Shown piece by piece: positions 853-28,103 of a stretch of 38,584 bases of DNA; the first letter of the stretch is position 1, and each line of letters starts with the position of its first letter. Where the stretch lies: positions 1 to 38,584 of the forward strand of contig JAGPHL010000001.1 in the NCBI GenBank assembly GCA_018055515.1, in the 5' to 3' direction. The position numbers and the translations under genes are program-made. The notes beneath the pieces were generated by a model. That model saw nothing but the letters and a program-made list of their open reading frames with translations, searched no databases and was not told the origin of the DNA. Origin of the DNA: Anaerolineae bacterium. Its GTDB lineage: Bacteria > Chloroflexota > Anaerolineae > B4-G1 > SLSP01.

Positions 853-855
853 GGC

Positions 856-4915: not shown

Positions 4916-6334
4916 TTATGCTGCGTCAGGCATCTCTTCAGCGCCAGTGGCAGGAGCGGTTGCGGGAGTCTCACCGGCGGCAGTCACCGGTTCAAGGAAG
5001 ACGGCCACCTCATCGAGATCCAAAATGCGCCCCAAATCCATGATGGCTTGCTGTAGCAACGCATCCACATCAAAGGAACGGCTGAAACGCCCGGAAAGGT
5101 CACCCAACACTTGCTGCCGCTGCGCCTGACGTTGGGTTTCCTCAACGAGGCGCAACGTCTCCAAAGTCTGACCTAGCTGATCCATGACCGACTCCACCAG
5201 CGCCAGGTCCTCCGCCGTCCAGGGGCTGCCATCGGTGCGCCGGGCGCTCAAGGCGCCGATGACCTCGTCGCGCACGGCGATGGGGACGGCAAGCTCGCCT
5301 CCCTCTACCACCGTACGTCGGCCCTGAGTCGCCTTCAGCATGGGCGGATTCCAGGCGGGAGATACTGCCTGGACCTCGCCGCCGCGGGCGTAGAAACCAC
5401 GACGCCCCGACCCAGACTCCAGGAACATCGTCCACGCTTCGCGAAGATAACGCTGCTGCACGGCGCGCAATTCATTCAGGGCAGTAATCAACGTCTCCAC
5501 CGTTCGGTTCAGCCGGCTGCCCAGCGCCAGCAATGCGGGATTCTCGATCCGCTTTGCCAGGTCCTCCATGTCCAGGCGCGCCTCGAAGTCGCCCTCTTCG
5601 ACGCGACTCAAAAAGGTGGTATACTCCTGGACGCTTGCCTGAAGCTGCTCCAGCGTCTCCTGGACCTGTTGGCGGGCCTCAACCTCGGCCTGAGCGGCGG
5701 TCTCGGCGCGTTCCAGGGCCTCAGAGAGCTCCTCACCGCGCCGATAGGCCGAGGCCAAGCTATCCTCGATGAGCCGGACAAAAACGGTCAGCAAGGCCAC
5801 CATACTCCCCAAAGAAAGGAGCATGATGCCGAGCGTCAACACCCGTTCGGCGGATGCAGACAGTGAGTAAGGAATCGCAATGCCACGCCCCTGCAACACC
5901 AGCCACACGGCCATTAGCACTACCACGCCCAGGGTCGAACCCAACGCCGCCCCGGGACCGCTTATCAATGCACTAATGACGATGAGAGGCGCAAAAGCCA
6001 GGGTAATAGGGCCCAGAGGGCCGCCCATGTAGTAACAAAGCGTCAGGAGGGTCAGACCACCGCCAATAAGGTAGGCCCTGGCCCCCCACTCCGTAGCGCC
6101 CCGGCGCAGGAGTCCCTGCACCAGCAACAACACCGCCGCATACCCGGCCAGGGATAGCACCACCGGCAGCGTCGGGAAATCCAGCACCAGGCGCCGGGCC
6201 CAAACGGCAAGCAAGAGCCCCGCTCCTAGCGCGTAGAGGGTCACGCGCGTCACAGCCGCTAACGTCTGGGCCTTGCGCGCCGCCGTCTGTTCCACCACCG
6301 CCGGCAATTTCGTGGGAGCGCCGAGACGTATCAT
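4916..6334 (-). CDS. Minimal array member: polytopic membrane domain, coiled coil and C-terminal W-module/tail, no canonical GAF
   Basis: ATGA overlaps the upstream gene at 6331-6334. The product has 5-6 hydrophobic helices, for example LYALGAGLLLAVWA and VLTLGIMLLSLGSMVALLTVFV. A long coiled coil follows (AETAAQAEVEARQQVQETLEQLQ). Then come the W-module (QRYLREAWTMF..LAVPIAVRDEVIGALSARRTDGSPWTAEDLALVESVMDQLGQTLETLRLVEE) and the tail (QQVLGDLSGRFSRSFDVDALLQQAIMDLGRILDLDEVAVFLEP). Confidence 0.88.
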   Translation of the reverse strand: MIRLGAPTKLPAVVEQTAARKAQTLAAVTRVTLYALGAGLLLAVWARRLVLDFPTLPVVLSLAGYAAVLLLVQGLLRRGATEWGARAYLIGGGLTLLTLCYYMGGPLGPITLAFAPLIVISALISGPGAALGSTLGVVVLMAVWLVLQGRGIAIPYSLSASAERVLTLGIMLLSLGSMVALLTVFVRLIEDSLASAYRRGEELSEALERAETAAQAEVEARQQVQETLEQLQASVQEYTTFLSRVEEGDFEARLDMEDLAKRIENPALLALGSRLNRTVETLITALNELRAVQQRYLREAWTMFLESGSGRRGFYARGGEVQAVSPAWNPPMLKATQGRRTVVEGGELAVPIAVRDEVIGALSARRTDGSPWTAEDLALVESVMDQLGQTLETLRLVEETQRQAQRQQVLGDLSGRFSRSFDVDALLQQAIMDLGRILDLDEVAVFLEPVTAAGETPATAPATGAEEMPDAA

Positions 6335-8574
6335 GCCTCCTCCTCCAACGTGTCAGACCCCTGACCTAGTTGCGCTCGCAGCTCCGCCGCTCCAAGCGCT
6401 TGACTCATGTCGCTCACAGCACGCTGCAACGCCTGTTCCACCGACGCGGCAGCCCGAATGTTGTCCACGATCTGGCGCACCAGGCGTTCGCGTTCGCTCC
6501 GGCGCAGGGTCTCCTCGAAGAGCCGCGCGTTATCCAGGGCCAACGCCGCCTGGGTCGCCAGGGCCTGCACGAGCTCCAATTCCTCCGGCGTCCAGGGGCG
6601 ATCGGCCGGCCGTTCCAATTCCAGCGTCGCCAGCACCTGATCGCGCAAGGTGATTTCTGCAGCAATGCGCTGGCCTTCGGGAGACGCGGGAGCTGCTGCC
6701 GGAGCAAGGGACGTCACCACCCCCTGTCCCTCGTAATGATACGCGAGCGGCGTGCGTCGGCGGCGCTCCGCCCAGGCTCTGCGCGTCTCCTCCCCAAGGG
6801 CGCGTTCCATGCGGGCCAGCGCCTCCTGGCTCTCCCTGAACAGCCGGGCGTTGTCCAATGCCAGCGCCAGCTGCTCCGCCATCGTCTGCAACACCGTCAC
6901 GTCCTCTTGCGTGAACGCCTCCGGCTCCGTGGATTGCACATCCAGGACGCCGATGACCTCACCGCGCGCCCGAAGGGGGAGCCCCATCTCCGAGCGGGTC
7001 TCTGGCAGATCGGGGTTGTTGAACCACACCGCGTCAGCGCCCACATCCAGGGCGATGCGAGGATGACCGGTCGCCAGAACCGCGCCGACAATCCCCACGC
7101 CGGCCTGGAGACGATGACCGCGCGCTAACATGCGCTTTCCACCTTCAGACGAAGCGGCGCGCAATTCGGCGTAGGTGCCATCGGGGCTGGCCACGAAAAT
7201 TCCTGCATGGTAGAAGCCAAAATGCTCCGAAATCAAGTTCACCATGGAGTCAAGCAGCTGTTCCTCGTCGCGGATTGAAGCCACATCACGCGCGACCTCC
7301 GCCGCCGCTTGCAGCTGTTGCGTACGCTTCCTTAAGTCGCGGGTGCGTTCAGCGACGCGCTCCTCCAGGGAGGCCCGCGTTTCTAGCAGCTCGGTATTGC
7401 TCACCCGCAACGCCGCTTCGATGCGGCGACGCCGCGCTGCGCTAAGGGATTGGGCCACGATGGTGACCAGCAACACCAGCCCCACCGCCGATACAGGCCA
7501 GATGATCTCGCCGTATTCCTCCAGGAAAGTGAGAGGGCGGTTGATCACCTCGCTATTCACCGGCAGCGTGCCCATGTCAATGCCAAAACGTTGTAACTGC
7601 CGATAGTCGAACATGTAGCGATTGGGGCTTTCCCACGCAATGGGGACATCGGCCGCCGAGGCCCCCGCCAGAAGCTGCTGGACCTTGAACGCTGCCGCCT
7701 CCCCCTGCAGGAAAGCGCTCGTCAATTTTCCCCCCACCAAACCGCGCCCCAGATAGGAATCCCACAGGCCATAAATCGGCGCCTTGGTATTGGCGTAGAT
7801 CAAGTCAATGGCTTCCTCGTAGGTGTAGAAATGCTGAGCGCGGTCACGGTTGAACAAGACCAGGAAGACCAGGTCGTCTTCGGTCAAAGCGCGCAACGCC
7901 GCTTCCAGCTCGGGCACGTCGGGATTCTCGTAATACACGAAGCTGACGCGATTCGCATAGCTCGCCGCGATCTCGTGAAACAGGCGCGAATACGCCACGC
8001 CTGTCGTCGTGCCGTCGTTGATGACGAGGATCTCGCGCGTCTGCGGGCGCTGCGCCAACGCCACGTCAAGTGTGGCCTTGATGTCTACCGTCATCACCAC
8101 GCCGGTGAAATACGCCCGAAGCCCTCCCAGCATCGTGTCCTCGAAGAGATTGACGCCGCAGAACACCACCGGCACTTCGGGGAAGAGGCGTTCATGGTAC
8201 TCCACCATGAAGTTGAAGGCCTCGTCATCGGTCACGACGATGGCGTCGAGGGGAATGGCGGCATATTTCTGCCGATAGAGTTCGTACAGACGCTCGAAAT
8301 ACGCGGCATCGGGAACGACGCGCTTGGCGTCCATGTATTCCAGGTATAACTCGACCGGCTGAGTCTCCGTATCCAGCACCGACTTGATTCCCTGTACCAG
8401 ATGATCGGTCCAGCTCAATCCCTGGTGATAGGAATTCAACACCAGGACGTTCTTGCGCGGCGCCTCCGTCGCCGTCTGTGCGGCGACGGGCCGATCTGGC
8501 CGAAGCCAGCCCACGCTCAACAAGCACAGCGCCAACAGCACCGCTCGAACCCGGAAACGAGGCTTATCTGCCAT
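6331..8574 (-). CDS. Array sensor: periplasmic-binding-protein-like domain, TM, signalling helix, GAF (FYH subtype), W-module, tail
   Basis: SD AGGAGA lies 7 nt upstream of ATG 8574. The product has an N-terminal signal anchor (AVLLALCLLSVGWL). The PBP-like extracytoplasmic sensor is marked by KNVLVLNSYHQGLSWTD. The TM is IIWPVSAVGLVLLVTIVAQSL and the signalling helix is LEERVAERTRDLRKRTQQL. The GAF reads HFGFYHAGIFV..LRAASSEGGKRML..WFNNPDLPETRSEMGLPL. The W-module is TRRAWAER..WTPEELELVQALATQAALALDNARLF and the tail is ERLVRQIVDNIRAAASVEQALQRAVSDMSQALGAAELRAQL. Confidence 0.9.
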   Translation of the reverse strand: MADKPRFRVRAVLLALCLLSVGWLRPDRPVAAQTATEAPRKNVLVLNSYHQGLSWTDHLVQGIKSVLDTETQPVELYLEYMDAKRVVPDAAYFERLYELYRQKYAAIPLDAIVVTDDEAFNFMVEYHERLFPEVPVVFCGVNLFEDTMLGGLRAYFTGVVMTVDIKATLDVALAQRPQTREILVINDGTTTGVAYSRLFHEIAASYANRVSFVYYENPDVPELEAALRALTEDDLVFLVLFNRDRAQHFYTYEEAIDLIYANTKAPIYGLWDSYLGRGLVGGKLTSAFLQGEAAAFKVQQLLAGASAADVPIAWESPNRYMFDYRQLQRFGIDMGTLPVNSEVINRPLTFLEEYGEIIWPVSAVGLVLLVTIVAQSLSAARRRRIEAALRVSNTELLETRASLEERVAERTRDLRKRTQQLQAAAEVARDVASIRDEEQLLDSMVNLISEHFGFYHAGIFVASPDGTYAELRAASSEGGKRMLARGHRLQAGVGIVGAVLATGHPRIALDVGADAVWFNNPDLPETRSEMGLPLRARGEVIGVLDVQSTEPEAFTQEDVTVLQTMAEQLALALDNARLFRESQEALARMERALGEETRRAWAERRRRTPLAYHYEGQGVVTSLAPAAAPASPEGQRIAAEITLRDQVLATLELERPADRPWTPEELELVQALATQAALALDNARLFEETLRRSERERLVRQIVDNIRAAASVEQALQRAVSDMSQALGAAELRAQLGQGSDTLEEEA

Positions 8575-8662
8575 AGACGCTCTCCTGAATAGACGGCATC
8601 GGAAATTGGCCAGCGCTGTCGTGACGTTCTCTGCGACTCTCAGCCCCCGCTGCCATCCGCGC

Positions 8663-10915
8663 TCACCCCTCTGATTCCACCACTTCGTCCGCTGCCAGCG
8701 GCTTCATGCGAATTGTGCCGGCGGCGCCGAGCACCTCGCCCAGCTCGCGGACGGTCGCCTGCAGCACAGTCTCCACGTCGCGGGAAGCGCGCAGCCGGTT
8801 AGAGATCTCCGCCACCAGCCGTTCGCGGAAAGCGCGGCGTTGCGATTCCTCATACAGCCGGGCGCTTTCCACCGCCACATTCAGCTGGTCTACCAGGGAT
8901 TGCAACAAAGCAATCTCCTCGGCAGTCCAGGTCGTGCCGTCCCGTTTGCGCCCGTCTATCACCCCGATGACCTGATTCCGCACCTGGATGGGGATCGCCA
9001 GCGTCACGCCAGAGTCCCCGGCGGCTATCTGTCCGGTGCGCAAGGCTTCCTGCATTTCTGGGCGCCAGGTCTCGCCGGCCGGGCGCGTCGCCACCCGATC
9101 GCTCACAAATCCCAGGTTGGATGCCGAGAGCAGCAACTGCTGCCACCCTTCGCGGGTCAACTCGCCGTAAGCCCGGCGCTCGGCCTCCAGGCTTGCCTGT
9201 ACCTGCGCAAACAAACGCGCGTTGCTGATGGCAATGGCGACCTGATCTGCCACTGTCTGCATCGTACTGATGTCCTCCGGTTTGAAGGCCGCCACACGCC
9301 GGCTCTGGATGGTCAGTGCGCCAATCACCTCGCCCCGCGCCCGTAACGGCAACGCCATTTCAGAGCGGGTTTCCGGCAAATACGGATTGTCGAAGCGCAC
9401 TGCGGCTTCACCGACGTCAAGCTGAATGTCGGCCTGCCCGGTCTCCACACAGCGGCCAATCATAGATTGGCCTCCTACCTGCAAGCGCCACCCTTGCGCC
9501 AGCATCTGCTGCCCGGCCTCGCCCGTGCCTGCGCGCAGCACCGCATATTCCTTCGCGGCGTCCAGCAGAAACAGCCCGGCGTAATACAGATCAAAACGCT
9601 GCTGCACCAGCTTGACCACTTCAGGCAGCAGCTCATCCAGTTCCACAATCTCAGTAGTGGCCCGCGACACCTCAGCCGCCGCTTCCAGCAAGGCCGCACG
9701 CTCCCGCAACTCGCCGGTGCGCTCCTCGACGCGCTGTTCGAGTAACGCTCGACTTTCCTGCAATTCACTCAAACTGTGGGTCAGCTCCAGTTCAGCGCGC
9801 CGACGGCGCAGGATATTGAGGATCAGCACCACAATCACCGCAGCCAAAATCACAAAGCTCAGGCCAACAATCCCTATCAGCTGCGCATATTGCTCAAAGA
9901 ATGAGAAAGGCTTGTTGAGAATAAAACTATCGGCGGGCAAAGCGGACTCGGGAATGCCCCAGCGCTGTAACTGTGCATAGTCGAACATGTAGCGCGCTGC
10001 CGGCGACTGCACCACCGGAATGTCCTCAGGGGATACACCGCTCAAAACGCGCAAGGCCAGCTGCGCCGCCCGTTCCCCTTCAGTCATGCCGCTGGTCAGC
10101 TTGCCGCCGACGATGCCATATCCCAGGCTGAAATCCCACAGCGCATAAACCGGCGCGGTGCTGTTGGTCGCCACCAGCGGCGAGAAAACATCGTACTCAA
10201 AGAAATTCCCGGCGCTGTCGCGCGAGAAAATCGTCAGCAGCACCAGGCTGTTGTCAGGCAGGCGCCGCAGCTGCTGCAACACGGCCTCCATCGTCATGTC
10301 CTCGAGATAAGTGAAGGTGATGTCGGGATAATCTTTCTCCAGGGCCACCAGCCGCTCATGGACCCGTCGCCCCGTCACAGTCGTGTCGTTCACCACGAAG
10401 ATCTGTCGGGTCTGCGGATGCAGCTTCAGCGCCAGGTCCACCGTCCCCGCCACATCGGCGATCTCACTCACGCCGGTGAAATTCTTGTGACCTGCCAGGC
10501 GGGTCACGTCGAAATAGTTAGCGCCGCAAAAGACCACCGGCACGCCGGGGAAGAGCTCGTTGGCGTATTGAAGCAGGAAGTCCAGCGCGGCATCGTCGGA
10601 AGAGATGATCAAATCGGGCTGTCGTGTGCCATATTTCACGCGGTAGAGCTGCGCCAGCTCCTCCAAATATGCCGGGTCATCTATCCGCTTCAGGTCCATA
10701 TATTCGACCCACAGGTCAATGTCCTCCCCGGCGGAGTTGAGGACGGTCTCGATGCCGCGAGTCACATCATCCGCGAATTTATAACCCCGGTGATAGGAGT
10801 TGAGGTACAACACCTCCCGACGCGGCACAATTTGCGATTGCGACAGAGCTCTGGCAGGTATCCACACCAGGCTGAGCACCATGCCGATGATCGCCAATCT
10901 ATGCAGTAGCTTCAT
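8663..10915 (-). CDS. Array sensor: periplasmic-binding-protein-like domain, TM, signalling helix, GAF (LYY subtype), W-module, tail
   Basis: The ORF-track start at 10957 is a TTG overlapping the upstream stop. I prefer ATG 10915, which has SD GGAGG 6 nt upstream and gives the signal anchor MKLLHRLAIIGMVLSLVWIPARA. The PBP-like sensor is marked by REVLYLNSYHRGYKFADD. The TM is IGIVGLSFVILAAVIVVLILNIL and the signalling helix is LEQRVEERTGELRERAALL. The GAF reads RFDLYYAGLFLLD..LRAGTGEAGQQML..RFDNPYLPETRSEMALPL. The W-module is TREGWQQL..LAIPIQVRNQVIGVIDGRK..WTAEEIALLQSLVDQLNVAVESARLY and the tail is ERLVAEISNRLRASRDVETVLQATVRELGEVLGAAGTIRMKP. Confidence 0.88.
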   Translation of the reverse strand: MKLLHRLAIIGMVLSLVWIPARALSQSQIVPRREVLYLNSYHRGYKFADDVTRGIETVLNSAGEDIDLWVEYMDLKRIDDPAYLEELAQLYRVKYGTRQPDLIISSDDAALDFLLQYANELFPGVPVVFCGANYFDVTRLAGHKNFTGVSEIADVAGTVDLALKLHPQTRQIFVVNDTTVTGRRVHERLVALEKDYPDITFTYLEDMTMEAVLQQLRRLPDNSLVLLTIFSRDSAGNFFEYDVFSPLVATNSTAPVYALWDFSLGYGIVGGKLTSGMTEGERAAQLALRVLSGVSPEDIPVVQSPAARYMFDYAQLQRWGIPESALPADSFILNKPFSFFEQYAQLIGIVGLSFVILAAVIVVLILNILRRRRAELELTHSLSELQESRALLEQRVEERTGELRERAALLEAAAEVSRATTEIVELDELLPEVVKLVQQRFDLYYAGLFLLDAAKEYAVLRAGTGEAGQQMLAQGWRLQVGGQSMIGRCVETGQADIQLDVGEAAVRFDNPYLPETRSEMALPLRARGEVIGALTIQSRRVAAFKPEDISTMQTVADQVAIAISNARLFAQVQASLEAERRAYGELTREGWQQLLLSASNLGFVSDRVATRPAGETWRPEMQEALRTGQIAAGDSGVTLAIPIQVRNQVIGVIDGRKRDGTTWTAEEIALLQSLVDQLNVAVESARLYEESQRRAFRERLVAEISNRLRASRDVETVLQATVRELGEVLGAAGTIRMKPLAADEVVESEG

Positions 10916-10953
10916 CCAATGCCTCCGTCCTCGTCCCACAGCCCAACCAGGCC

Positions 10954-12666
10954 TCAAGCATCCGGTGTCTTGGCATCCGCAGTCGCGCCGGGGACCAGCC
11001 GCACGATCATGTCCTCCAGGTCCAACGCCTGGCGCATCTCTTCAGCCGCCGTGCGCAACATGCGCTCCAGCTCCAACGTCTCGCGGATATGACCGCTCAC
11101 TTCACCGACCAGGCGCTCACGCGCAGCGCGCAGCTGGGTGTCCCGGTACAGCCGTCCACTTTCCAACGCCACACTCAATTGCTCGGCCAGGGTTTGCAAC
11201 AACGCCATTTCCGCCGACGTCCACATCGCGCCGCCGGGCTTGCGGCCGTCAAGGACGCCGATCACCTGATCCCGCACCTTGAGCGGCAGAGCGATCGCGC
11301 TGGGGTCCGTCTCATCCGTGACGATCTGTCCCGTTTGCAATGCTGCCGCCATGCGCGGCTCCCAAACGGCGGCGGGACGGACACCCGTCACATCGCTCAC
11401 ATAAGCCGGCTCCGCCCTCTGCCGTACCAGCTCCTGCCAGGCCTCCCGCGCGCGCGCCGCATACAGATGACGCTCAGCCGTCACACTTTCTTCCAATTGG
11501 CGCAGCAGATCGGCGTTATTGATGGCCACGGCCACTTGATCGGCAATGGCCTGCAGAATGCTGACGTCTTCCCGCGTAAAAGCCTGCGGGGTTTTGCTTT
11601 GCACATCCAAAGCGCCCAGGACTTTATTGCGCACGCGCAAGGGCAACGCGATCTCGGAGCGCGTTTCCGGCAGGTCGGGGTTGTTGAAGAAAGCGGCATC
11701 CTGCCCTACATCCTGGGCGATCCGCACCTCGCCGCGCGCTACAGCGGCCCCTACGATGCCCTCCGTCCCAATGGAGAGACGATGACCGCGCGCCATCATC
11801 CGCTTTCCCCCCTCGCTGGACGCCGCCCGGAGCACAGCCCAGGTCTCCGTGGAATCCACGAGAAAGATTCCGGTGTGATAAAAAGCGAATTGCTCACTGA
11901 TAATGTCCGTCACCCGCATCAACAACGATTGAGTGTCCTGCCGCACCGCCGCCATGGCTGCCGCGATGGCGGTCGTAGCGCCCAGGTAACTCGTCCGGCG
12001 CCCCAACTCGTCGGTGCGTTGGGCGACCAAAGCCTCGAGCTGCTCACGGCGCGTCTCCAATTCCAGGTTGGATTGACGCACACGAGTCAGAGATCCACGC
12101 AATTCCCGCAATGTCTGGTCCAGAGGCCCCACGATGAGCAACAGGCTCATCGTCAACACGGCCCAGGTAGAGATGTCCGAGATAAAAAAGACCTGAGGCA
12201 AGGATCCCCCCAACGCTCGGAAGACAGCCACTCCCAAATAAGCCACACTGCTGAGCACCGACACGATCAGCGCGGCCCCAACCCCCAATAACAGCCCGGC
12301 GATCGCTACCAGGCTCGCGCTGACAGCGACAAAGGGGTTGCCGTTCGTGCTCACGACGCCGGCTCCGGTAACGATAAGCCAAAATGTCGCCACCAACAAC
12401 AGATTGCCTTCGCGCACCCGGCCCTTTTGCAACAACAGTTTGCAGGCCAGCGCCACTAGAAACAAAAGCCCAAACGCGATGCAGGAGGCCACTTTTGCCG
12501 TAAAAAACAGGAGCGCCATGCACACGCCAAAAACGATCGCCACGAACATTCCCCCCAGCAGGGAATTCAACAGGCGGGCAACCCGCGTTTTCTCCTCATC
12601 GTCCTCAAAGACAGGCGCGGCCAGGAATGCTTTCAGCCGGTCCTTAAACCCCTTGTGCTCGCTCAT
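10954..12666 (-). CDS. Array sensor: polytopic membrane domain, coiled coil, GAF (FYH subtype), W-module, tail
   Basis: ATGA overlaps the upstream gene at 12663-12666. The product has about 6 hydrophobic helices. The coiled coil is RREQLEALVAQRTDELGRRTSYL. The GAF reads QFAFYHTGIFLVD..LRAASSEGGKRMM..FFNNPDLPETRSEIALPL. The W-module is AREAWQEL..IALPLKVRDQVIGVLDGRK..WTSAEMALLQTLAEQLSVALESGRLY and the tail is ERLVGEVSGHIRETLELERMLRTAAEEMRQALDLEDMIVRLVP. Confidence 0.9.
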   Translation of the reverse strand: MSEHKGFKDRLKAFLAAPVFEDDEEKTRVARLLNSLLGGMFVAIVFGVCMALLFFTAKVASCIAFGLLFLVALACKLLLQKGRVREGNLLLVATFWLIVTGAGVVSTNGNPFVAVSASLVAIAGLLLGVGAALIVSVLSSVAYLGVAVFRALGGSLPQVFFISDISTWAVLTMSLLLIVGPLDQTLRELRGSLTRVRQSNLELETRREQLEALVAQRTDELGRRTSYLGATTAIAAAMAAVRQDTQSLLMRVTDIISEQFAFYHTGIFLVDSTETWAVLRAASSEGGKRMMARGHRLSIGTEGIVGAAVARGEVRIAQDVGQDAAFFNNPDLPETRSEIALPLRVRNKVLGALDVQSKTPQAFTREDVSILQAIADQVAVAINNADLLRQLEESVTAERHLYAARAREAWQELVRQRAEPAYVSDVTGVRPAAVWEPRMAAALQTGQIVTDETDPSAIALPLKVRDQVIGVLDGRKPGGAMWTSAEMALLQTLAEQLSVALESGRLYRDTQLRAARERLVGEVSGHIRETLELERMLRTAAEEMRQALDLEDMIVRLVPGATADAKTPDA

Positions 12667-18065: not shown

Positions 18066-18077
18066 GGCTGTCCTCCC

Positions 18078-21000: not shown

Positions 21001-21248
21001 AACGTCCCGCTGATGATCAAGCCATCAAATTTCTCGGGCCCGATCAGGTCGAAGACGACCGTCTGAGGAACGTTCCAACGCAGCTCGCCGCCCACCAGGC
21101 AAATGAGATTGACGTCCAGGGCCGCCGCGGCATCTGCTACCCCCAACAGGAAACCGTTCTCATAGCCATCGCGCAGCCAGGTGACCAACAGTCCAATCGT
21201 AGGGCGGGACGTTTGCTCGCGGATTTTATGCGTGTCCTGTGCTTCCAT
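18078..21248 (-). CDS. Soluble array member: LacI/RbsB-type ligand-binding domain without an HTH, unassigned region, internal W-module, GAF (LYY subtype), second W-module, tail
   Basis: SD GAGGA lies 7 nt upstream of ATG 21248. There is no TM segment. The PBP type-1 pattern is IGLLVTWLRDGYENGF..HGYRRIAFIQGP..VVSANDDMAFGAFDVLQAHGLRVPEDVALVGFDD, with no preceding helix-turn-helix. The internal W-module is QRQYIREAWRS..LGAPLMLYGEIVGLMGLERQGAQPWTEAEIALVEGLLEQAARAVETRRL. The GAF reads RFGYYYVGLFLVE..LRAGTGEAGQLML..RFDNPLLPETRSEAAVPL. The second W-module begins TQESWREYL and the tail is ERLISETTARIREQLDMDAVLQAAVHELQQVLGLERVELRVGTP. Confidence 0.88.
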   Translation of the reverse strand: MEAQDTHKIREQTSRPTIGLLVTWLRDGYENGFLLGVADAAAALDVNLICLVGGELRWNVPQTVVFDLIGPEKFDGLIISGTLGHALAAEDLARFCARFAPLPMVGGALPLPGVVQVLPDSLSGMREAVEHLITVHGYRRIAFIQGPAGQLEAEERYRAYTEVLLRHGLPLDPALVVRGDYRRVTGQAAMEELLARGAPLEAVVSANDDMAFGAFDVLQAHGLRVPEDVALVGFDDVDAAPFLEAPLTTVRQSFTDAARIATETVLALIRGGPVPDIIHIPTQLVLRRSCGCQLEVVEQAAAPVSAVPELPVAWETLSAPVNVPAPVWQAFREDVASGTSSRFLTACTQALRSIQAAAQPAEVVPVAEVAAWHTTLSALRRAALPHLVDRAQLLHAENLLQQARVLVSAEVQRLEGYRQLALKRQETRIQEFDRALMAVLSLSELQPPVEHYFPALGIRHAYMTLYPAENEPAEHLHLAFSYEHEHGAHAWEPPIAFPARQLLPEGMGLEQQRYTAVLVPLLTRNTSLGVMLLELGPRDGAIYDRLGEQFSGSIYRMSLLQHQAEVQAALEASRQEAETALRDLLALQRQYIREAWRSADVSGATHSYSAAGAEAPPWLPAMTAALAEARSVQQPTDSGYSLGAPLMLYGEIVGLMGLERQGAQPWTEAEIALVEGLLEQAARAVETRRLVAETRYRAAQLRTATEIAQITSSILSLQELITQAVNLLEERFGYYYVGLFLVEETGRWAVLRAGTGEAGQLMLERGHKLEVGGASMIGQCILENQARIALDVGAEAVRFDNPLLPETRSEAAVPLRSRGRAIGAMTLQSVEPAAFSEEDLAVLQTVADQLGNAIETARLLDEMERTVRALEAAQGRYTQESWREYLETIGKTIGYRYRLGLEPAPALSPEEQTALAEQQPVITRYGLPAESAATPEAAHAVIALPLRLREQTIGVLDVRFEAEEVPPETLELLEQIAEQVTLSLESARLYQATQQQAAQERLISETTARIREQLDMDAVLQAAVHELQQVLGLERVELRVGTPPALEEVQQVTAGD

Positions 21249-21257
21249 GCGCTGTCC

Positions 21258-22520
21258 TCACTCCAATGCCGCTGCGGATGTTTCCTGCGCGAGCGCCGCC
21301 AGCTGTTCGCGCGTTCCCAAGCGCGTGACTGCCGTCGTCGCGCCCATCAAGCGTCCCACTTCTTCCGTCACAATGCGCAGCACGGCTTGAATGTCTGCCG
21401 CGCCAATGATTTGCTCCGTAATCACGCGGACCCGCTGTTCCTGCAGCGCTTGCTGCTGCAACTGCTCGAAAAGCCGGGCGTTGTAGATCGCGTTGGCGAC
21501 GGGAACCGCCACAGCCTGAATCAATGCCAGATCGTGCTCGTCGAAAACGTAGGATTGGGTGTAGCTCTCAATCGCTAACACTCCCACTACCTGATTCAAC
21601 GCGATCAAAGGGGTACCCAACCAGGAATTTGCCTGCTGTCCCAGGTGCTCAAAACCGTGCTCACGACAGAAAGCCAGTTCTTCTTCGGCGGTGCGGAACA
21701 GCAGCGACCGGCGTTCGCGGATCATGTATCCCGTCAACCCCTCGTTCAACGGATATTCCCGGCCCACCAAACGCTCACCTTCTTGCACATCGAAAGCCGA
21801 AGACCAAATGCCGCGTTCCTCATCCACCACGGCGATGTAGAAACTGGAGACATCGAAGAGCCGTCCCAGCTGCATGTGAGCAGTATGGAATACCTCCTCC
21901 AGATCGTGGGTCACGGCCAGCGCCTGGCCGATCTCGTTGAGGACCAACATCTCCTGCATCCGGCGCGCCTGTTGCGCCGAGAGCCGTGCGTTTTCGAGGG
22001 CAGCCGCCGCCTGATTGGCAACGGTCATCAGCAGATCGCGCTCCCGTTCGCCATAGAGCCCCGGCGTGGTGTAACTCTGCACCGTCATCACGCCGATCAC
22101 GCGATCGCCTATCATCAAGGGCACTCCCAGCCAGGATTTCGCCCCCGTAATCCCCAGGATCCGCACTCCCAATTCGGTGATGCGCTCCATGGAGCTTTCT
22201 TCCAACAACAGCGGCGCCCGCGTCTGGATGACATATTCGGTCAGGCCGCCGCTCATCTTGCGGTAAGTGCGCTCGCCGCGCTCCACCCGTTGGCCCTCCG
22301 TCACGTCCAGGCAGAAAAAGAGCTCTTGCTTGAGTTCGTCATACAGGGCGATGTAGAAGTTCGTCGTGTCCATCAAGCGCGAGACGGCGCGATACACGCC
22401 CTCGACCACCTCTTCCATGCCCAGGCCGGCAGCAGTCAACGCCGCCATTTCCTGGATGACCGAAAGCGCTGTGCCCGCTGTCGTGTCGATCGAGCGCAGT
22501 TCGAACTCCTGTTCCATCAT
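21258..22520 (-). CDS. Soluble array member: two GAF domains plus family tail
   Basis: ATGA overlaps the upstream gene at 22517-22520. There is no TM segment. The two GAFs are of the SWLG[VT]PL type: KSWLGVPLMIGDRVIGVMTVQSY and NSWLGTPLIALNQVVGVLAIESY. The tail is EQRVRVITEQIIGAADIQAVLRIVTEEVGRLMGATTAVTRLGT. Confidence 0.9.
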   Translation of the reverse strand: MMEQEFELRSIDTTAGTALSVIQEMAALTAAGLGMEEVVEGVYRAVSRLMDTTNFYIALYDELKQELFFCLDVTEGQRVERGERTYRKMSGGLTEYVIQTRAPLLLEESSMERITELGVRILGITGAKSWLGVPLMIGDRVIGVMTVQSYTTPGLYGERERDLLMTVANQAAAALENARLSAQQARRMQEMLVLNEIGQALAVTHDLEEVFHTAHMQLGRLFDVSSFYIAVVDEERGIWSSAFDVQEGERLVGREYPLNEGLTGYMIRERRSLLFRTAEEELAFCREHGFEHLGQQANSWLGTPLIALNQVVGVLAIESYTQSYVFDEHDLALIQAVAVPVANAIYNARLFEQLQQQALQEQRVRVITEQIIGAADIQAVLRIVTEEVGRLMGATTAVTRLGTREQLAALAQETSAAALE

Positions 22521-24454
22521 GAGCTCACCTCCTCAGCCGCAGGCGCAACGGCGTCCGGCAACGTCACATGGACCGTGGCCTCGGCTACGCCAGGCAAACG
22601 TCCCAATTGCGCCACAGCCGTCTGCAACACCGTCGTCACGTCAAGCGAGCGCCGCAGCTGCGAGGCAATCTCGCCGGCCAGACGCTCCTGGCTCGCGCGA
22701 CGCTGCGTTTCCTGATGCAAACGCGCACTCTCCAACGCCTGCGCCAGCTCCTGAGCCGTCCGCGCGGCGAAGGAAATTTCCTCACTCGTCCAGGGCCGAT
22801 CAAGAGGACGGCGTACCTGCAACACGGCAAGTTCCAGCCCGGCAATCGTCACCGGCACCAACAGGGTGTTGTCTGTCAGCACTCGAGGCGCGGTCAGTGG
22901 CGCCGCAGGGACGCCCTCCCCACCCTTGTCCAACGCCTCCAGAGTCCGCGGCGTGTAACGATAGCCGCGCAGGCTGAGTTGTGTCATGAAATCTGACCAA
23001 CCGCGATGCAAGTCCTGGGCATAAGCACGCTGCAGCTCGCGCATGGCCTCCTGACGCTGAGCAAAAACCAGCGCGTTGGCAATGGCCACGGCGAGCTGAT
23101 CCGCCAGGATGGCCAGGGTACGGATATCCTCAGGGCGGAAGGCGCCCACGTCGCGGCTCTGCACGTCCAGAGCGCCGATCACCTGCCCACCAACAATCAA
23201 AGGCAACGCCATTTCGGAATGCGTCTCAGGCAGATCGGGGTTATCGAACCACACCATGTCCTCGCCAACATCCAGCGCGATACGCGGTCGTCCCGTCTGC
23301 GTGACGTAGCCCACGATGCCCTGCGCCCCGACCGCCAGCCGATGTCCGCGCGCCAACATCCGCTGCCCGCCTTCCGAGGAGGCAGCGCGCAACACCGCCC
23401 ACTCACGGCTCTCGTCCAGCAGAAAAATGCCGGCATGGTAGAAGCCAAACTGCTCCGGGATGAGCCGCACCGCTTGCCACAGCAGCTCGTCCAGGTCAAG
23501 GAGCGAAGCGGCGACGCGGCTGACTTCCCCCGTCGCCCGCAGGTAGGCCGCCTGACGTTCCAGATCGGCCGTGCGCGCCGCAATACGTTCCTCCAACGTG
23601 GCCACTAACTCACGCAGCTGCCGGGTCATCACATTAAAAGCATCCGCCAGCTGCGCCGCTTCTGCTTCGGGAGGCAAGGGGATCTCAAAATTCAAATCGC
23701 CGCCTGCGACCCGTTCAACTGCAGTGACCAGCGCGCCAAGATACGTCGTCAGATTGCGGCCCAATAGCCAGCCGCCGCCGGCAGCGAGCGGCGCCGCGAT
23801 CAGCAAAGCCAGCGCGCCCAGCCGTAGAAAGGCGGATTCCTGACCGCGCACGTTGGCGGCATCCAAATCCACGCACAAGATGCCCACCAGTGTGCCATCG
23901 GCGGTACGCAGCGGGGCATACGCCGAAAGCCAGGTCCCCCACTGATCCACATAGAAGTCCTCTTCGACCGCAGGGCCAGCCAGCGAACCGACCACTTGTC
24001 GCAAGAGCGGGCCGGCATCGTCATACACGCTGCCGGGCAAAGACACCTCTTCAGCCGATTCCTCGGCATCCGCCACAAAGTAAATCTTGCCATCCGCTCC
24101 CTGATGGACGATGTAGACAAAGCGCGCGTCGGTGATGCGGTCCCGCACCGCCCGCAGCTGCGCAACGACGGACTCATACAGCGGGCCGGTTTGCGGTTCA
24201 GCCGCGACCAGGCGTGCCACGGTCTCCACGTCCACGCTCAGCGCGGCGAGAGCCACCTCATCCCGAAGCCGCCCGCGGATTTCCCGGCTCAGATACGGGC
24301 CCACGGCAAAGCGTGCGACCCCCACGATGAAGCCCACCAGCAGCAACAAACTCCAGGCCGCAAAACCGACGGCGGCCCGCGTGCGCAAGCGGGGGCGCAC
24401 TTCGGGCTCTGGGGTCTGATCGCGCGACGGCGCGAAATCCGGCTTCACGCTCAT
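22517..24454 (-). CDS. Array sensor: single Cache/PDC-like domain, TM, HAMP, GAF (FYH subtype), W-module, tail
   Basis: ATGA overlaps the upstream gene at 24451-24454. The first TM is AAWSLLLLVGFIVGV. The Cache-like block is ARFVYIVHQGADGKIYFVADAEE..DQWGTWLSAYAPLRTADGTLVGILCVDLDA. A second TM precedes the HAMP (YLGALVTAVERVAGGDLNFEIPLPPEAEAAQLADAFNVM). The GAF reads QFGFYHAGIFLLD..LRAASSEGGQRML..WFDNPDLPETHSEMALPL. The W-module begins HRGWSDFM and the tail is ERLAGEIASQLRRSLDVTTVLQTAVAQLGRLPGVAEATVHVTLP. Confidence 0.9.
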   Translation of the reverse strand: MSVKPDFAPSRDQTPEPEVRPRLRTRAAVGFAAWSLLLLVGFIVGVARFAVGPYLSREIRGRLRDEVALAALSVDVETVARLVAAEPQTGPLYESVVAQLRAVRDRITDARFVYIVHQGADGKIYFVADAEESAEEVSLPGSVYDDAGPLLRQVVGSLAGPAVEEDFYVDQWGTWLSAYAPLRTADGTLVGILCVDLDAANVRGQESAFLRLGALALLIAAPLAAGGGWLLGRNLTTYLGALVTAVERVAGGDLNFEIPLPPEAEAAQLADAFNVMTRQLRELVATLEERIAARTADLERQAAYLRATGEVSRVAASLLDLDELLWQAVRLIPEQFGFYHAGIFLLDESREWAVLRAASSEGGQRMLARGHRLAVGAQGIVGYVTQTGRPRIALDVGEDMVWFDNPDLPETHSEMALPLIVGGQVIGALDVQSRDVGAFRPEDIRTLAILADQLAVAIANALVFAQRQEAMRELQRAYAQDLHRGWSDFMTQLSLRGYRYTPRTLEALDKGGEGVPAAPLTAPRVLTDNTLLVPVTIAGLELAVLQVRRPLDRPWTSEEISFAARTAQELAQALESARLHQETQRRASQERLAGEIASQLRRSLDVTTVLQTAVAQLGRLPGVAEATVHVTLPDAVAPAAEEVSS

Positions 24455-26181
24455 GCCTCTTCCTCCCCCTGCGCCAGCGGCGGCAAAGGCCCGGTGCCGG
24501 GCAACGCACTCGCCGGTGATGGCGACGGCGTGAGGGTCAACACCACCTCGCTCGCATCCAACGCCGCGCCCAGCTCGCCCACGCCATGACGCATGATCGT
24601 CTCCACATCAAAACTGGACCACATCAAATTCGCGACGTGCGTCAGCTGCTCCTGATACAACGCTTTACGTCGGCTATCACGCAGCAGGCGCACCGTGTCG
24701 AAAGCGCTTGCCAGCCGTTCGACCGCCGTCGTCGCCAGCAACAGCGTGTCCGCGTCCCAGGGTAGCGCCAGCTTGTCGCCCTGCGTCTTGCGGGTGAAGG
24801 CCACGTACCCCAACGTCGTCTCGCGCCAGATGAGGGGCGCGATCAACACCCATCCCCCTTCCCCCGCGGTGAGTTCTACGACGCGCGGTTGCCCCTCGGC
24901 CAGGGCCTCCGCCGCCAGCGCCTGGATGTTTGCCGGCGGCGCTTCACCCGCCTGAATCTCACGCACGCCCCCCTCGGCGTCCAACAGCGAGCGCCAGGAA
25001 GTGCCGGCCACCTGCGCATACAACGTGCGGAGTTCCCGGGCGCGCCCGGCGGTCTCGTCCAACAAGCGCAAAATGTTCAACGTCGCGGCCACCTGATCGG
25101 CGAGAATGCGGAAGAGGCGCACGTCTTCATCGGAAAAGGGCTCGCCGCTGCCGTAGATTCCCAGGACTCCCAGCAGTTCGCCGCCGAACAACAAGGGCAG
25201 CGCCGCTTCGGCACTGCGCAAGGGGAAACGCTCATCACCGACAGGGATAGCGGTTTCGGCCCTTCCCAGCTGCGCCACCCGCCCCGGCAACGAGTCCCCG
25301 CCGACGGGGAGTACCCACCCGGCGTCCACCAGGGCCTGTCCCTGCGCGCCTGCCGCCGCGACGAGCTCCAGACGCTCACCCCGGCTATCTACGAGGAAGC
25401 AATTGGCCTGATAAAGTTCAAAGGTCCGCACCAATTCTTGCACGAGCAGTTGCAGCAGTTCTTCTCGATTGCGGATACGCCCCAAGGTGCGCGCCAGGAG
25501 CGCCACCTGGTCCAGACGGGTCGCCTCGCGGCGCGCCCGCTGCGCGTCCTCCTGCGCTTGCAGCTGCAAACGGCGGGCGAGATCTGCATTGCGCTGCAAT
25601 TCCTCCATGGAACGGAACAGGAATTTCCGATACTCGTTGATGATCAGTCCCAGGACCAGCGTCACGGCGAAGGGCACAAAGAACTCCATCCCCCACGACC
25701 CCAGATCAGCGGGGTTTTGGGCTTGCAGGGGAAGCAACCGCCCGCGGGAGTAATTCCAGGCAATCACGGCGTAGCTGCCAATCGCCAGCGCCCCCCAAAG
25801 TCCCAACCCCTGGGGTCCCAGCAGCAAGGTCGCCAGCAGCGGCACCAACACCAGCAAGAGCCGTCCGGCACCCACCAGGCCGTTCTGCGCCAGAATGTAC
25901 ACGCCGATCAGCAACAGCAACAGCAAGACGACGTTGATGCGCAGCAGAGGGGGCAAGCCTTTGATAAAAGCCAGCGCCGCCAACACTCCGAACAATATCA
26001 GGATAATGGGGACTTGCCAGTAAAAGCCGCGACTGATGACGGCAGGAATCCAGAAAAAGAGCACCGCCACGCCGATGGCGACGGAAAACTGCAGCAACCG
26101 TTCAAGCAGCCAGTTGCGGAATTGCGCTTCCTGTTCCGCGAGCGCGTTCCCTAGTGGAGCGCCAGGTGTGCGTGATTTCAT
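24451..26181 (-). CDS. Array sensor: polytopic membrane domain, divergent GAF, W-module, tail
   Basis: ATGA overlaps the upstream gene at 26178-26181. The product has about 6 hydrophobic helices and a coiled coil (LQLQAQEDAQRARREA). The divergent GAF reads FELYQANCFLVDSRGERLELVAAAG..RSAEAALPLLFGGELLGVLGIYG. The W-module is AGTSWRSLL..VLIAPLIWRETTLGYVAF..WDADTLLLATTAVERLASAFDTVRLL and the tail is QEQLTHVANLMWSSFDVETIMRHGVGELGAALDASEVVLTLTP. Confidence 0.88.
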   Translation of the reverse strand: MKSRTPGAPLGNALAEQEAQFRNWLLERLLQFSVAIGVAVLFFWIPAVISRGFYWQVPIILILFGVLAALAFIKGLPPLLRINVVLLLLLLIGVYILAQNGLVGAGRLLLVLVPLLATLLLGPQGLGLWGALAIGSYAVIAWNYSRGRLLPLQAQNPADLGSWGMEFFVPFAVTLVLGLIINEYRKFLFRSMEELQRNADLARRLQLQAQEDAQRARREATRLDQVALLARTLGRIRNREELLQLLVQELVRTFELYQANCFLVDSRGERLELVAAAGAQGQALVDAGWVLPVGGDSLPGRVAQLGRAETAIPVGDERFPLRSAEAALPLLFGGELLGVLGIYGSGEPFSDEDVRLFRILADQVAATLNILRLLDETAGRARELRTLYAQVAGTSWRSLLDAEGGVREIQAGEAPPANIQALAAEALAEGQPRVVELTAGEGGWVLIAPLIWRETTLGYVAFTRKTQGDKLALPWDADTLLLATTAVERLASAFDTVRLLRDSRRKALYQEQLTHVANLMWSSFDVETIMRHGVGELGAALDASEVVLTLTPSPSPASALPGTGPLPPLAQGEEEA

Positions 26182-28103
26182 AGTTCCTCCTCCACCGGAG
26201 CGGCCGGAGGCGTCAGATTGACCAGGACGCCATCCACATCCACCAGCGTCTGCAATGCCCGCGCCGCTTTGGAAGCCAACATCGGCAGGTCAAAGATGTC
26301 CGCCAGCTGGTCCGAGAAGCCGCGCAACTGCTGTTCCATTTCCACCCGCTGTCGAGCGGAGCGCACCATCCGCAAGCGCTGTAAGGCGGCGCTTGCCAGT
26401 TCCAGCAGCTGTTCGTACAGCAGGGCTTCAGTCGGTTCGAAGGGATGCAAGGTGTTGAAGAGGACCCCCAGAATGCCAAGCAGGCGCCCCTCCTCGTGAA
26501 AAGGCACCCAGGCCAGGCTCCGCAATTGCCCCTGCGTCGCCAGGCGCGCCAGGGCGTTGAGATCGTCGGTCTTCCACCCCGACGCTTCAGGCGCGGCGAC
26601 ATCAGTGACCAGCAGCGGCTTCTCCGCCTGCAAGACTCCCGGGATCAACGCCTCCTCCGCAAACCAGCGCGCCCAGGGGAACTGCAGGCCAGGGAAACGG
26701 AGGTGTTCGCCGCGGAGCTCCGCCGTCAGCGTCGCGTAAGCGCCGTCCTCAGACGGAATCAGGAGAAAAGCCCGGTGGGGGAAAGTCTCCTGCACGGTCT
26801 CCAGAATGGCGGCGTAGACTTCCTCCTCGGTGCGGGCCTGGGCAAAACGCTGCACTAATCTGTAGAAGGGACTGGTGGCCTCCAGAATCGCGGCCTGATC
26901 GCGCACACGGGAGGCATTGGCGAGCGCCGTCGCCAGCAGCCCCGCCGCCAAATCCAGCACCTGCAGCTCATCCACGTCGAAGAAATCAGCCTCGAGGCTC
27001 TGTAAATCCAACACCCCCAGCGTGCGCTCGCCGTGCCGCAAGGGCAGCAAGGCCATCGAACGCGCCTCCCGTAAACGCCAGGGCTCCAGGGGATCATGGG
27101 CAGCGAAAATCCGCGAACGTCCCTGCTGCCACACTTCCCCCAGAAGCGTGCCGCGCACGGGCATCCGGAAGGCCTCCTGCATCAGACGCCGGCCCGCCTC
27201 CGACGAAGACGCCCGCAGGACTAACGCCTGGCCCTCCTCGTCCGGCAGATAAAGGCCGACGTGATGCAGCTCAAAAATCCTGGCGCAGACCTCGACGGCG
27301 CGGCTCAATAAGGGCACCAGATCGAGCAAGGAGCTCGTCTCAGAGGCAAAATCCAGGGCGCCTTCGAGCAGAAAGACACGCCGCTGCAGAGCGTAATTCA
27401 CCTGCTGGAGGTTTTGCGAACGGGCATTGACCTCAGCCTTTTCGCGCTCCACTGCGGCCACCCGCTCACGCACCGCGGTCATCGCGGCGGTGAAACGGGG
27501 CACGAGATAACGCTGGATCACGATGAGCATGGTGCTGAGCAACGCCAGCGAGACGATGTCGCTCACCAACGAGACCGGCACCGGGCCGACGAGCATGGGA
27601 TCGTTGAGCGGCGGCAACGGCCAGACTCCCCTCACCCCCAACATGCCCACCGTGAGAAGTGTGAGGCTGCTCAATGCCAGCGCTGCAAAACCCTGCGGGA
27701 CGCCGTAGAACAGGGAGGTCAGCAACGCCAACGCCATGAAGAACAGGCGGGCGTCTTCCTTCCAGCCAAAAACCAGCAGGTCCGCTAGACCCAGCACGTA
27801 GAGCAGCAGCAAAATCCCCCCTACCTGGAGGGCATAGGGCACTTTGCGCCAGAAGACCAGGACCAACACCAACAGGTAAGCCACACCATAGGCGACTATC
27901 AGGGTGAAATACCCCCGCAAATAAACGCCATAAGCGCTGAAGGCCAGCGCCAGCGGGCCGACGATCGCAGCGGCCACCAACAGGCCGTGCGCCAACTGCG
28001 CTCGCCAGCGTTGGACTTCCTGCAAGGTAACTTCCGCAATGGCTACCTGCGAGTTCTCCGCATCCTCCTGCGGTCGCGATTTTAGCTGTTCCCCACTCTG
28101 CAT
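26178..28103 (-). CDS. First gene of the array: polytopic membrane domain, two GAF-like domains, tail
   Basis: I trimmed the ORF-track GTG 28160 to ATG 28103 (MQSGEQLK), which has SD AAGGAG 5 nt upstream. The product has about 6-7 hydrophobic helices and a coiled coil. The first GAF reads IFELHHVGLYLPDEEGQALVLRASSSEAGRRLM..ARSMALLPLRHGERTLGVLDLQS. The second GAF-like block is RSLAWVPFHEEGRLLGILGVLF. The tail is EQQLRGFSDQLADIFDLPMLASKAARALQTLVDVDGVLVNLTP. Confidence 0.85.
   Translation of the reverse strand: MQSGEQLKSRPQEDAENSQVAIAEVTLQEVQRWRAQLAHGLLVAAAIVGPLALAFSAYGVYLRGYFTLIVAYGVAYLLVLVLVFWRKVPYALQVGGILLLLYVLGLADLLVFGWKEDARLFFMALALLTSLFYGVPQGFAALALSSLTLLTVGMLGVRGVWPLPPLNDPMLVGPVPVSLVSDIVSLALLSTMLIVIQRYLVPRFTAAMTAVRERVAAVEREKAEVNARSQNLQQVNYALQRRVFLLEGALDFASETSSLLDLVPLLSRAVEVCARIFELHHVGLYLPDEEGQALVLRASSSEAGRRLMQEAFRMPVRGTLLGEVWQQGRSRIFAAHDPLEPWRLREARSMALLPLRHGERTLGVLDLQSLEADFFDVDELQVLDLAAGLLATALANASRVRDQAAILEATSPFYRLVQRFAQARTEEEVYAAILETVQETFPHRAFLLIPSEDGAYATLTAELRGEHLRFPGLQFPWARWFAEEALIPGVLQAEKPLLVTDVAAPEASGWKTDDLNALARLATQGQLRSLAWVPFHEEGRLLGILGVLFNTLHPFEPTEALLYEQLLELASAALQRLRMVRSARQRVEMEQQLRGFSDQLADIFDLPMLASKAARALQTLVDVDGVLVNLTPPAAPVEEEL

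Follow-up and report, generated by a model that had tools for sequence, protein, structure and literature searches.

What does a receptor signal to when it carries no output domain? Bacterial receptors are usually classed by their output, as kinases, methyl-accepting chemotaxis proteins (MCPs), cyclases or DNA-binding proteins. The question is raised by positions 1 to 38,584 of contig JAGPHL010000001.1 of an Anaerolineae bacterium (GCA_018055515.1), a stretch of 38,584 nt here called the window, in which 13 co-directional minus-strand genes of one family (1..28103) form an array of receptor-like proteins with the same C-terminal module in each. None of these 13 genes has a match in Pfam or NCBIfam to HisKA, HATPase_c, MCPsignal, GGDEF, EAL, HD-GYP, cyclase, phosphatase or DNA-binding domains; for HisKA and HATPase_c the negative applies at E ≤1e-2 (0.01), and both domains are present in the neighbouring gene at 28616-31051. 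Matches to NCBIfam MCP models are confined to the sensor/HAMP part of g6, and homologs are named in databases only as "GAF domain-containing protein". An initial annotation, made from the letters of the window, had described one cytoplasmic cassette fused to at least seven kinds of input, but contained neither the lack of an output domain nor the reduced C-terminal module and the repeated association with genes for a ParA-type ATPase and a multi-GAF kinase that are described below.

The array is tightly packed, neighbouring genes overlapping by 4 nt in five places and standing 3-12 nt apart in four, with no gap wider than 88 nt, and a single gene that is not a family member and has no cassette (g8) is embedded in it. 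The genes and, for g6, the parts of the cassette are as follows.

g0, 1..852, minus strand: 5' part only, running off the window; polytopic membrane module with ~6-7 transmembrane (TM)-like segments, coiled coil and start of GAF-A
g1, 856..4908, minus strand: soluble multi-GAF protein (7 GAF stretches) with PAS_4, GAF-A and C-module (Pfam)
g2, 4916..6334, minus strand: 5-TM module, coiled coil, W-linker, mini-GAF and tail, without full GAF-A
g3, 6331..8574, minus strand: periplasmic ABC_sub_bind-like domain (25.6 bits), TM, S-helix LEERVAERTRDL and cassette
g4, 8663..10915, minus strand: periplasmic ABC_sub_bind-like domain (28.2 bits), TM, S-helix and cassette
g5, 10954..12666, minus strand: unnamed polytopic membrane module (no Pfam family), S-helix and cassette
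g6, 12663..15071, minus strand: Cache_3-Cache_2 (Pfam, E 2e-87), HAMP, S-helix and cassette
Parts of g6 by alignment, minus strand: GAF-A 13191-13676; W-linker 13005-13190; mini-GAF 12837-13004; tail 12666-12833
g7, 15127..16989, minus strand: four-helix bundle (TarH, Pfam), HAMP, S-helix and cassette
g8, 17043..18065, minus strand: stand-alone NMT1/THI5-type solute-binding protein (NMT1 E 6e-54), directly upstream of g7
g9, 18078..21248, minus strand: cytoplasmic LacI-type Peripla_BP_3 domain (Pfam), ~330 unannotated residues, extra half-GAF, GAF-A and C-module
g10, 21258..22520, minus strand: soluble GAF-GAF-tail protein with GAFs outside the GAF-A subtype (Pfam)
g11, 22517..24454, minus strand: periplasmic domain of ~165 residues and unverified fold, HAMP (E 8.5e-10), S-helix and cassette
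g12, 24451..26181, minus strand: MASE11 membrane module (39.9 bits) and cassette
g13, 26178..28103, minus strand: MASE11 (57.6 bits), divergent GAF-A, full second GAF and tail; first gene of the array

The shared cassette and its truncated end

The cassette is composed, in order, of an S-helix, a complete GAF domain (GAF-A), a linker of ~60 residues with an invariant Trp, a half-GAF (mini-GAF) and a tail of ~60 residues, mini-GAF and tail together forming the C-module. The S-helix motif LExxVxxRTxxL is located directly before GAF-A in six window genes (g3-g7 and g11) and in 107 of 231 family genes, the order being HAMP, motif and GAF in g6, g7 and g11, and motif and GAF in g3, g4 and g5. The motif was defined as LExxVxE(R/K)Tx(E/D/Q)L in a study of NarX/NarQ, whose layout is sensor-TM-HAMP-S-helix-GAF-like and where signal transmission is the role assigned to the GAF-like domain (PMC8199190). 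Array members have the same order of sensor, TM, HAMP, S-helix and GAF with a reduced GAF as transmitter, and the top partial match of g6 in NCBIfam is NarQ. The suggestion of the initial annotation that the GAF cassette occupies a transmitter position is thus upheld by its location behind the S-helix in a NarX/NarQ-like layout. Unlike NarX/NarQ, array members have no DHp and CA domains, in place of which a second reduced GAF and a truncated-GAF tail are found, and their inputs differ from NarX-type nitrate sensors.

GAF-A is detected by PF01590/PF13185 in g3-g7, g9, g11 and g12 over profile positions 1-133 (E 1e-15 to 1e-26). The half-GAF of the C-module corresponds to Pfam GAF positions ~90-133 only, and in g2 a match to positions 91-133 alone (residues 348-391) is observed. 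GAF-A is absent from g2 and, across the family set of 280 genes, which includes twelve from the window, from 26 genes that nevertheless keep mini-GAF and tail, while g10 and g13 have a full GAF instead of the half-GAF. The element common to all members is therefore a mini-GAF or GAF followed by the tail, and the earlier view of the full GAF as the constant part could not be maintained, the GAFs of g10 being in addition of another type. Scored against the GAF-A profile, typical array members reach 179-255 bits, g13 92 bits and the adjacent kinase GAF 74 bits, with 35-39 bits for the GAFs of g10, 35-44 bits for the other GAFs in g1 and g10, and 187-240 bits for three GAFs of g1 that are of the cassette type. 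On these profile scores GAF-A is a distinct GAF subtype. The expectation that the constant regions are closer to each other than to GAFs outside the array was borne out as far as the window genes, to which this comparison is limited.

The tail has no Pfam match even at E 10. It aligns, weakly, to the first helix and strand (alpha1-beta1) of GAF-A (hhalign E 1.5e-4), and a profile of half-GAF and tail matches five internal GAF-GAF junctions of g1. When 1.84 billion representatives were scanned with HMMER, the top matches were multi-GAF proteins of 1100-3950 residues, in which profile positions ~64-172 are repeated 6-21 times per protein. These three results identify the tail as the helix between two GAFs plus alpha1-beta1 of a further, cut-off GAF. 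An ANTAR-like or other small output domain was ruled out for the tail by the lack of a Pfam match and by its GAF N-terminus sequence pattern; the split-GAF tail is a candidate new domain. In the exhaustive scan 14,234 representatives matched the 181-position profile at E ≤1e-30, and the list is dominated by multi-GAF proteins (P0033-P0182) of up to 3952 residues with up to 21 consecutive GAF junctions. The giant multi-GAF histidine kinases of Chloroflexota and Cyanobacteria share with the array both the GAF subtype and the sequence of the GAF-GAF junctions, and g1 and a gene of 1523 residues in locus L052 are multi-GAF members of the array. Those kinases that follow ParA genes (see below) end in HisKA-HATPase(-REC), whereas array members stop inside a GAF repeat.

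The stop is placed with precision. Relative to the profile end, the proteins stop at a median of +1 residue, with a 10th-90th percentile range of -7 to +10 (n=266, ~45 species), the terminus is hydrophilic with Asp and Glu enriched ~2-fold, and tail positions are conserved over 231 cassettes. In AlphaFold2 (AF2) models (mean predicted local distance difference test, pLDDT, of 79 and 81), GAF-A is followed by a helix of 53 residues, a five-strand mini-GAF, an exit helix of 47 residues, a short cap helix and a disordered end. GAF-A adopts the canonical GAF fold in these models (pLDDT >90), and the mini-GAF is a set of five strands flanked by two helices, the helices that form the pocket being absent. 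The idea of a circular permutation, with the mini-GAF completed by the tail, was unsupported, as neither AF2 monomer packs a terminal strand there, although such packing is conceivable in dimers. Foldseek returned partial GAF matches of ~55 residues for the C-module alone (E ≥0.02), and for the whole cassette single GAFs and, over the full length, the tandem GAFs of PDE2A (1mc0), PDE5 and CyaB2 and phytochrome GAF-PHY. Like these, the cassette has two GAF folds on long helices, the second of them reduced, and an exit helix. It differs in that no effector follows the exit helix, that no NKFDE-type motif is present and that the N-terminal receptor domain senses. NKFDE is the signature motif of the cyclic nucleotide-binding GAFs of the PDE/CyaB2 type, and by inspection no N-K...F...D-E pattern occurs in the consensus of 231 cassettes. 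Likewise, no catalysis-like pattern of conserved His, Asp or Cys was seen in the cassette alignments, in which W, R, L and P occupy the invariant positions. With the S-helix in front and long helices running through it, the modelled cassette has both the position and the geometry of a relay. As a transmitter without a catalytic part, it would therefore have to deliver its output by protein contact.

The state of GAF-A bears on a different explanation, namely that the members are autonomous receptors whose cassette is itself the output, the input controlling binding or release of a GAF-A ligand (a nucleotide second messenger or a metabolite) or binding to a target other than a kinase, with kinase and ParA genes as unrelated or loosely connected neighbours. 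This would fit a full, canonical GAF-A (pLDDT >90) whose loop motifs G.G and NP.LP.TRSE.ALPL are strongly conserved in 231 cassettes, and ligand-binding GAFs, including cAMP-bound Lcd1 and fRMsr, are among the top Foldseek matches. However, GAF-A is not a universal output, because g2 and 26 of the 280 family genes do without it and keep the C-module. Its conserved motifs are also present in ordinary multi-GAF kinases, and it lies between the S-helix and another long helix, a relay position. We consider this explanation unlikely.

Inputs, conservation and ancestry

Seven kinds of input were verified by profile on the window cassette, in an array of 13 genes, in agreement with the number first proposed; the input of g11 is an unverified eighth. 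The tandem Cache of g6 was confirmed, with Cache_3-Cache_2 at 293.6 bits (E 2e-87, above the gathering score) followed by HAMP, and so was the cytoplasmic LacI-type fold of g9 (Peripla_BP_3, E 1e-29, no signal peptide or TM segment). Between this domain and the extra half-GAF of g9, residues ~300-630 (~330 residues) match no profile. The helical bundle of g7 is marginal, TarH scoring 26.4 bits against a cut-off of 25.2, and the periplasmic-binding-protein-like domains of g3 and g4, both with the NSYH motif, reach threshold level only: when the periplasmic part was scanned alone, ABC_sub_bind (PF04392) scored 25.6 and 28.2 bits, just below and above the cut-off of 25.9, and full-length scans of both were below it. 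PAS with extra GAFs, assigned earlier to two genes, was found in g1 (PAS_4 and 7 GAF stretches) but not in g10, in which Pfam detects two GAFs and no PAS. The single Cache/PDC domain assigned to g11 was not substantiated, sCache_3_3 matching over 28 residues at 14.2 bits against a cut-off of 28.8 (E 0.058). Among the polytopic modules, g12 and g13 contain MASE11 (PF20969, 39.9 and 57.6 bits against a gathering score of 27.3), and g0, g2 and g5 have 4-7 TM-like segments that belong to no Pfam family. One unnamed membrane module is common to g2 (residues ~15-190) and g5 (~25-185). An iterated local hidden Markov model (HMM) detects it in ~54 of the 280 family genes, a frequency comparable to that of dCache_1 or MASE11, and on this sequence basis it is a candidate new MASE-type sensor domain.

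A similar repertoire is used elsewhere. As labelling of inputs by single-sequence phmmer proved too insensitive (198 of 280 unlabelled), iterated HMMs and a Pfam census were used instead. Among 135 inputs of 39 other loci the census yielded HAMP 63, dCache_1 38, MASE11 21, sCache_3_2 8, Cache_3-Cache_2 7, Peripla_BP_3 6, dCache_3 6 and HisKA_7TM 5, besides PAS, 4HB, 7TMR-DISM and others. The family inputs are thus the standard input repertoire of kinases and MCPs.

When GTDB species representatives were searched with the cassette of g6, 50 loci (cited below by L numbers) were obtained, nearly all from metagenome-assembled genomes (MAGs) of Anaerolineae and other Chloroflexota. A local HMM search located co-directional runs of 3-12 C-module genes in 47 of these 50 loci, which belong to distinct species-level MAGs. 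Identity to the window is 96% for L001, and an array of at least 38 kb emerges when L019 and L028, which overlap on a single contig, are combined. In L052, which is 99% identical to the window, the array extends past g0: the complete g0 (583 residues, 99% identity, ending in the C-module) is followed by a member of 632 residues, an ABC_sub_bind-like binding protein, the multi-GAF member of 1523 residues and an open reading frame (ORF) with GAF-A/junction sequence that is cut at the locus end. Window and L052 together give this organism at least 15 complete members over ~39 kb, and the end of the array is not reached. Two loci with a Chloroflexota-type array, L002 (JAGPEO010000064.1) and L031 (JANQEQ010000064.1), come from contigs binned as Phycisphaerae/Phycisphaerales MAGs; L002 shares 96% identity with L001, an Anaerolineae contig, and the placement of both is probably a binning error.

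A tail that resembles a GAF cut after its first strand could be taken as debris, the genes then being histidine kinases or multi-GAF proteins that decay after loss of the kinase core, or artefacts of fragmented MAGs and frameshifts. This explanation is effectively refuted. All parts of the array are under purifying selection: compared with L001, whole genes have a ratio of nonsynonymous to synonymous substitution rates (dN/dS) of 0.08-0.21, with 0.07-0.10 for GAF-A and values mostly ≤0.15 for mini-GAF and tail. The truncation point is identical in the 266 genes measured above, and every gene possesses a start, a stop and an N-terminal membrane or signal segment of its own, a structure that is the same in the independent assemblies L001, L051, L052 and L053. 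Low dN/dS, the constant end point and the conserved tail residues identify functional genes rather than relics, and pseudogenes or assembly artefacts were ruled out on the same constant end point and dN/dS.

The locus had been viewed as a cassette system built by duplication and N-terminal domain swapping. Replacement of inputs is real: in 74 of 119 cases the input class differs between a cassette and its nearest paralog in the same locus. The array did not arise locally or recently, since in 101 of 122 labelled cases the input class agrees with that of the nearest cassette in another locus, with a chance expectation of 0.23. Most window cassettes are 50-69% identical to their match in another species versus 44-53% to window paralogs, and orthologs of g4 with the same input in L014, L026 and L007 have cassette identities of 64-69%. 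Within the window, the cassettes of g6 (Cache) and g7 (4HB) are closest to each other, the g3 cassette is closer to those of g11 and g5 than to that of g4, and the two MASE11 genes, g12 and g13, have a GAF-A identity of 27%. Paralogs are thus older than speciation. Because the closest cassettes are found across species with the same input, duplication and input swapping are ancient and the array has been stably inherited as a unit.

Companion genes and a possible kinase partner

Fifty ORFs without a cassette, located inside or just past arrays, were examined as companions. Most encode stand-alone ligand-binding proteins (ABC_sub_bind 8, Peripla_BP_6 6, NMT1 3, SBP_bac_1 3, Phosphonate-bd 2, and SBP_bac_8/11), and in L003 an NMT1 gene occupies the position equivalent to g8. 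Such interleaving suggests binding-protein-dependent sensing by the adjacent membrane members. Four companions are FIST proteins (N and C domains); embedded binding-protein or FIST ORFs are present, for example, in L004, L010 and L008.

A ParA/MinD-type ATPase gene is found in 15 loci, directly after the last array gene in 11 of them (gap -96 to +166 nt), inside the array in two, at the array head in L012 and ~5 kb past a short array in L041. The protein matches AAA_31 (154.6 bits), has the deviant Walker A sequence SNEKGGVAKTT (KGGxxK[ST]) and remains below the NCBIfam subfamily cut-offs (ParA_partition 99 vs 180, bacterial MinD 57 vs 213 and BcsQ 88 vs 158 bits). In L013, L020, L022, L025 and L037 the next gene, overlapping that for ParA, encodes a complete soluble multi-GAF HisKA-HATPase_c kinase; a REC probe was positive in four of these five, not in L025. 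The same pair of ParA and hybrid kinase is present in L041, and Pfam detects PAS_4, GAF, HisKA, HATPase_c and REC in the kinases of L022, L037 and L041. In L016, L035, L036 and L040 the multi-GAF ORF after ParA runs into the locus end before any kinase core is visible, L023 and L029 end at ParA, and in L012 the order is kinase, ParA, array. A GAF kinase immediately upstream of the array is found in the window, L011 and L014.

The ten ORFs that follow ParA all open with a conserved helix, MSKKQINNRLDKLF, a spacer (~40 residues in six, a longer insert in four) and a mini-GAF/junction that closely resembles the C-module of the sensors, and eight of the ten have a GAF matching the GAF-A profile at E 1e-45 to 1e-66. 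Since it is built of the same GAF-A and mini-GAF/junction modules, the linked kinase is the most economical partner for the receptors. Downstream of the ParA-linked hybrid kinase, four loci encode threonine-synthase-like pyridoxal phosphate (PLP) enzymes with a C-terminal REC domain (L020:10252-11940, L022:18913-20694, L037:17582-20984 and L013:19925-21013; 252-257 bits against an equivalog cut-off of 303), an unusual enzyme-REC output for which no earlier description is known to us.

We tentatively propose that the kinase-less receptors converge on a shared GAF kinase, by analogy with chemoreceptor arrays, a reading to which we give somewhat less than an even chance. Each array protein would be a receptor without a kinase, with its own periplasmic, membrane or cytoplasmic input, and some would probably cooperate with stand-alone binding proteins whose genes are interspersed with their own. 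The input would act via HAMP and/or S-helix on a common dimeric helical-GAF transmitter, in which the signal would pass from GAF-A through the long helix, the pocket-less mini-GAF and the long exit helix to the truncated-GAF tail. Output would occur by protein contact, the likeliest partner being the GAF histidine kinase made of the same modules, and many signals would enter one phosphorelay whose downstream REC proteins would include the threonine-synthase-like enzyme. The ParA/MinD protein encoded between array and kinase may organise or position the assembly, in the way that the ParA-like ParC/PpfA position transmembrane and cytoplasmic chemoreceptor arrays (PMC11407121).

Several points weigh against this proposal. 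The pair of ParA and kinase is recurrent but not universal, being found at roughly half of the interpretable array ends, a gap in the linkage that also favours autonomous receptors. No such pair was seen in this organism over the window and the adjoining 10 kb (L052/L053), a region in which the array end is not reached, and the sole visible kinase is the upstream membrane HAMP-GAF kinase, 512 nt and hairpins away. The docking idea is drawn from shared modules and gene order, and the likeness of the kinase GAFs to GAF-A may reflect common descent only. GAF-A, a complete and highly conserved GAF, could bind a ligand, and the AF2 models are monomers computed from shallow alignments.

The same modules and packing would also suit a role as modulators, in which the kinase-less paralogs dimerise or oligomerise among themselves or with GAF kinases and, as scaffolding or dominant-negative (anti-kinase) subunits of such mixed complexes, tune a signal rather than convey it. 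Sensors and kinases have modules in common, long helices are typical for parallel dimers, and translational coupling suggests co-assembly. However, the ligand-binding inputs of all members are intact, under selection and diverse, something that a pure inhibitor could do without, and membrane and soluble members stand side by side. We regard this role as rather improbable.

Convergence of the receptors on one kinase would resemble MCP arrays in several respects: many receptors with interchangeable inputs (Cache, 4HB, PAS, HAMP), one constant non-enzymatic cytoplasmic module, a histidine kinase that would be shared, and a linked gene for a ParA-family ATPase. Unlike MCP arrays, the family has no MCPsignal domain, no CheA, CheW, CheR or CheB genes were seen in the examined loci, the constant module is built from GAF domains, one long translationally coupled operon encodes the receptors, and the kinase is a HisKA-type hybrid; array formation by the GAF family is entirely hypothetical. 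In its most far-reaching form, the proposal would describe a second, GAF-based kind of bacterial receptor array, in which dozens of kinase-less TM and soluble receptors and binding proteins dock via mini-GAF and split-GAF tail on one soluble hybrid histidine kinase, positioned by ParA, with a threonine-synthase-like PLP enzyme under phosphorylation control as output, an origin independent of chemotaxis and a restriction to filamentous Chloroflexota. In this full form we consider it doubtful.

All component domains are of known types and their combination is undescribed in the literature searched, in which no earlier description of this architecture was found. What the family represents is a large, conserved and selected set of proteins, encoded in operons of 10-17 genes, that combine standard inputs and transmission elements and end in a truncated GAF without an output. 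Should the signals of the sensors be passed to one common GAF kinase, the design would be many-to-one integration comparable to that of chemoreceptor arrays but made of different parts. It would also account for the thousands of proteins annotated as "GAF domain-containing protein" in Anaerolineae, bacteria that abound in digesters, sediments and wastewater. The family is a test case for GAFs as relays or docking modules, and for sensor engineering it offers a natural collection of interchangeable inputs attached to a single transmitter.

The region upstream of the array

All large ORFs of the window are on the minus strand (GC 58-65%). Along transcription, the genes for a permease and a xanthine-dehydrogenase-type enzyme are followed by a response regulator, a membrane kinase and a 512-nt gap, and then by the array from g13 to g0.

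Xanthine/uracil permease and complete three-subunit xanthine-dehydrogenase-type operon (molybdenum cofactor, 2Fe-2S and FAD subunits), 32113-37563, minus strand: upstream of the array
Single-domain response regulator, 31036..31560, minus strand: Response_reg E 1e-19, 16-nt overlap with the kinase gene
Membrane histidine kinase, 28616..31051, minus strand: sensor-TM-HAMP-S-helix-GAF-HisKA-HATPase_c (Pfam), LEAKVVARTELL
Intergenic gap, 28104..28615, no strand: 512 nt between kinase gene and array, with two strong hairpins (28266-28295 and 28310-28348)

The front half of the kinase is built as in array members, and a kinase core is added to it. The gap with its hairpins is probably a transcription-unit boundary; a sigma-70 scan of the 512 nt found no promoter, and an Rfam search of the window found no RNA family. 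The hairpins (28266-28348) are near-perfect and GC-rich, with stems of 13 and 18 bp. T-runs accompany them on the plus strand only, A-runs standing before and after them on the gene strand, and they could be a terminator of antisense transcription, an element resembling repetitive extragenic palindromes (REP-like) or a regulatory structure. Just past the kinase stop (28560-28600) lies a short GTGCGAAGGTG-like repeat.

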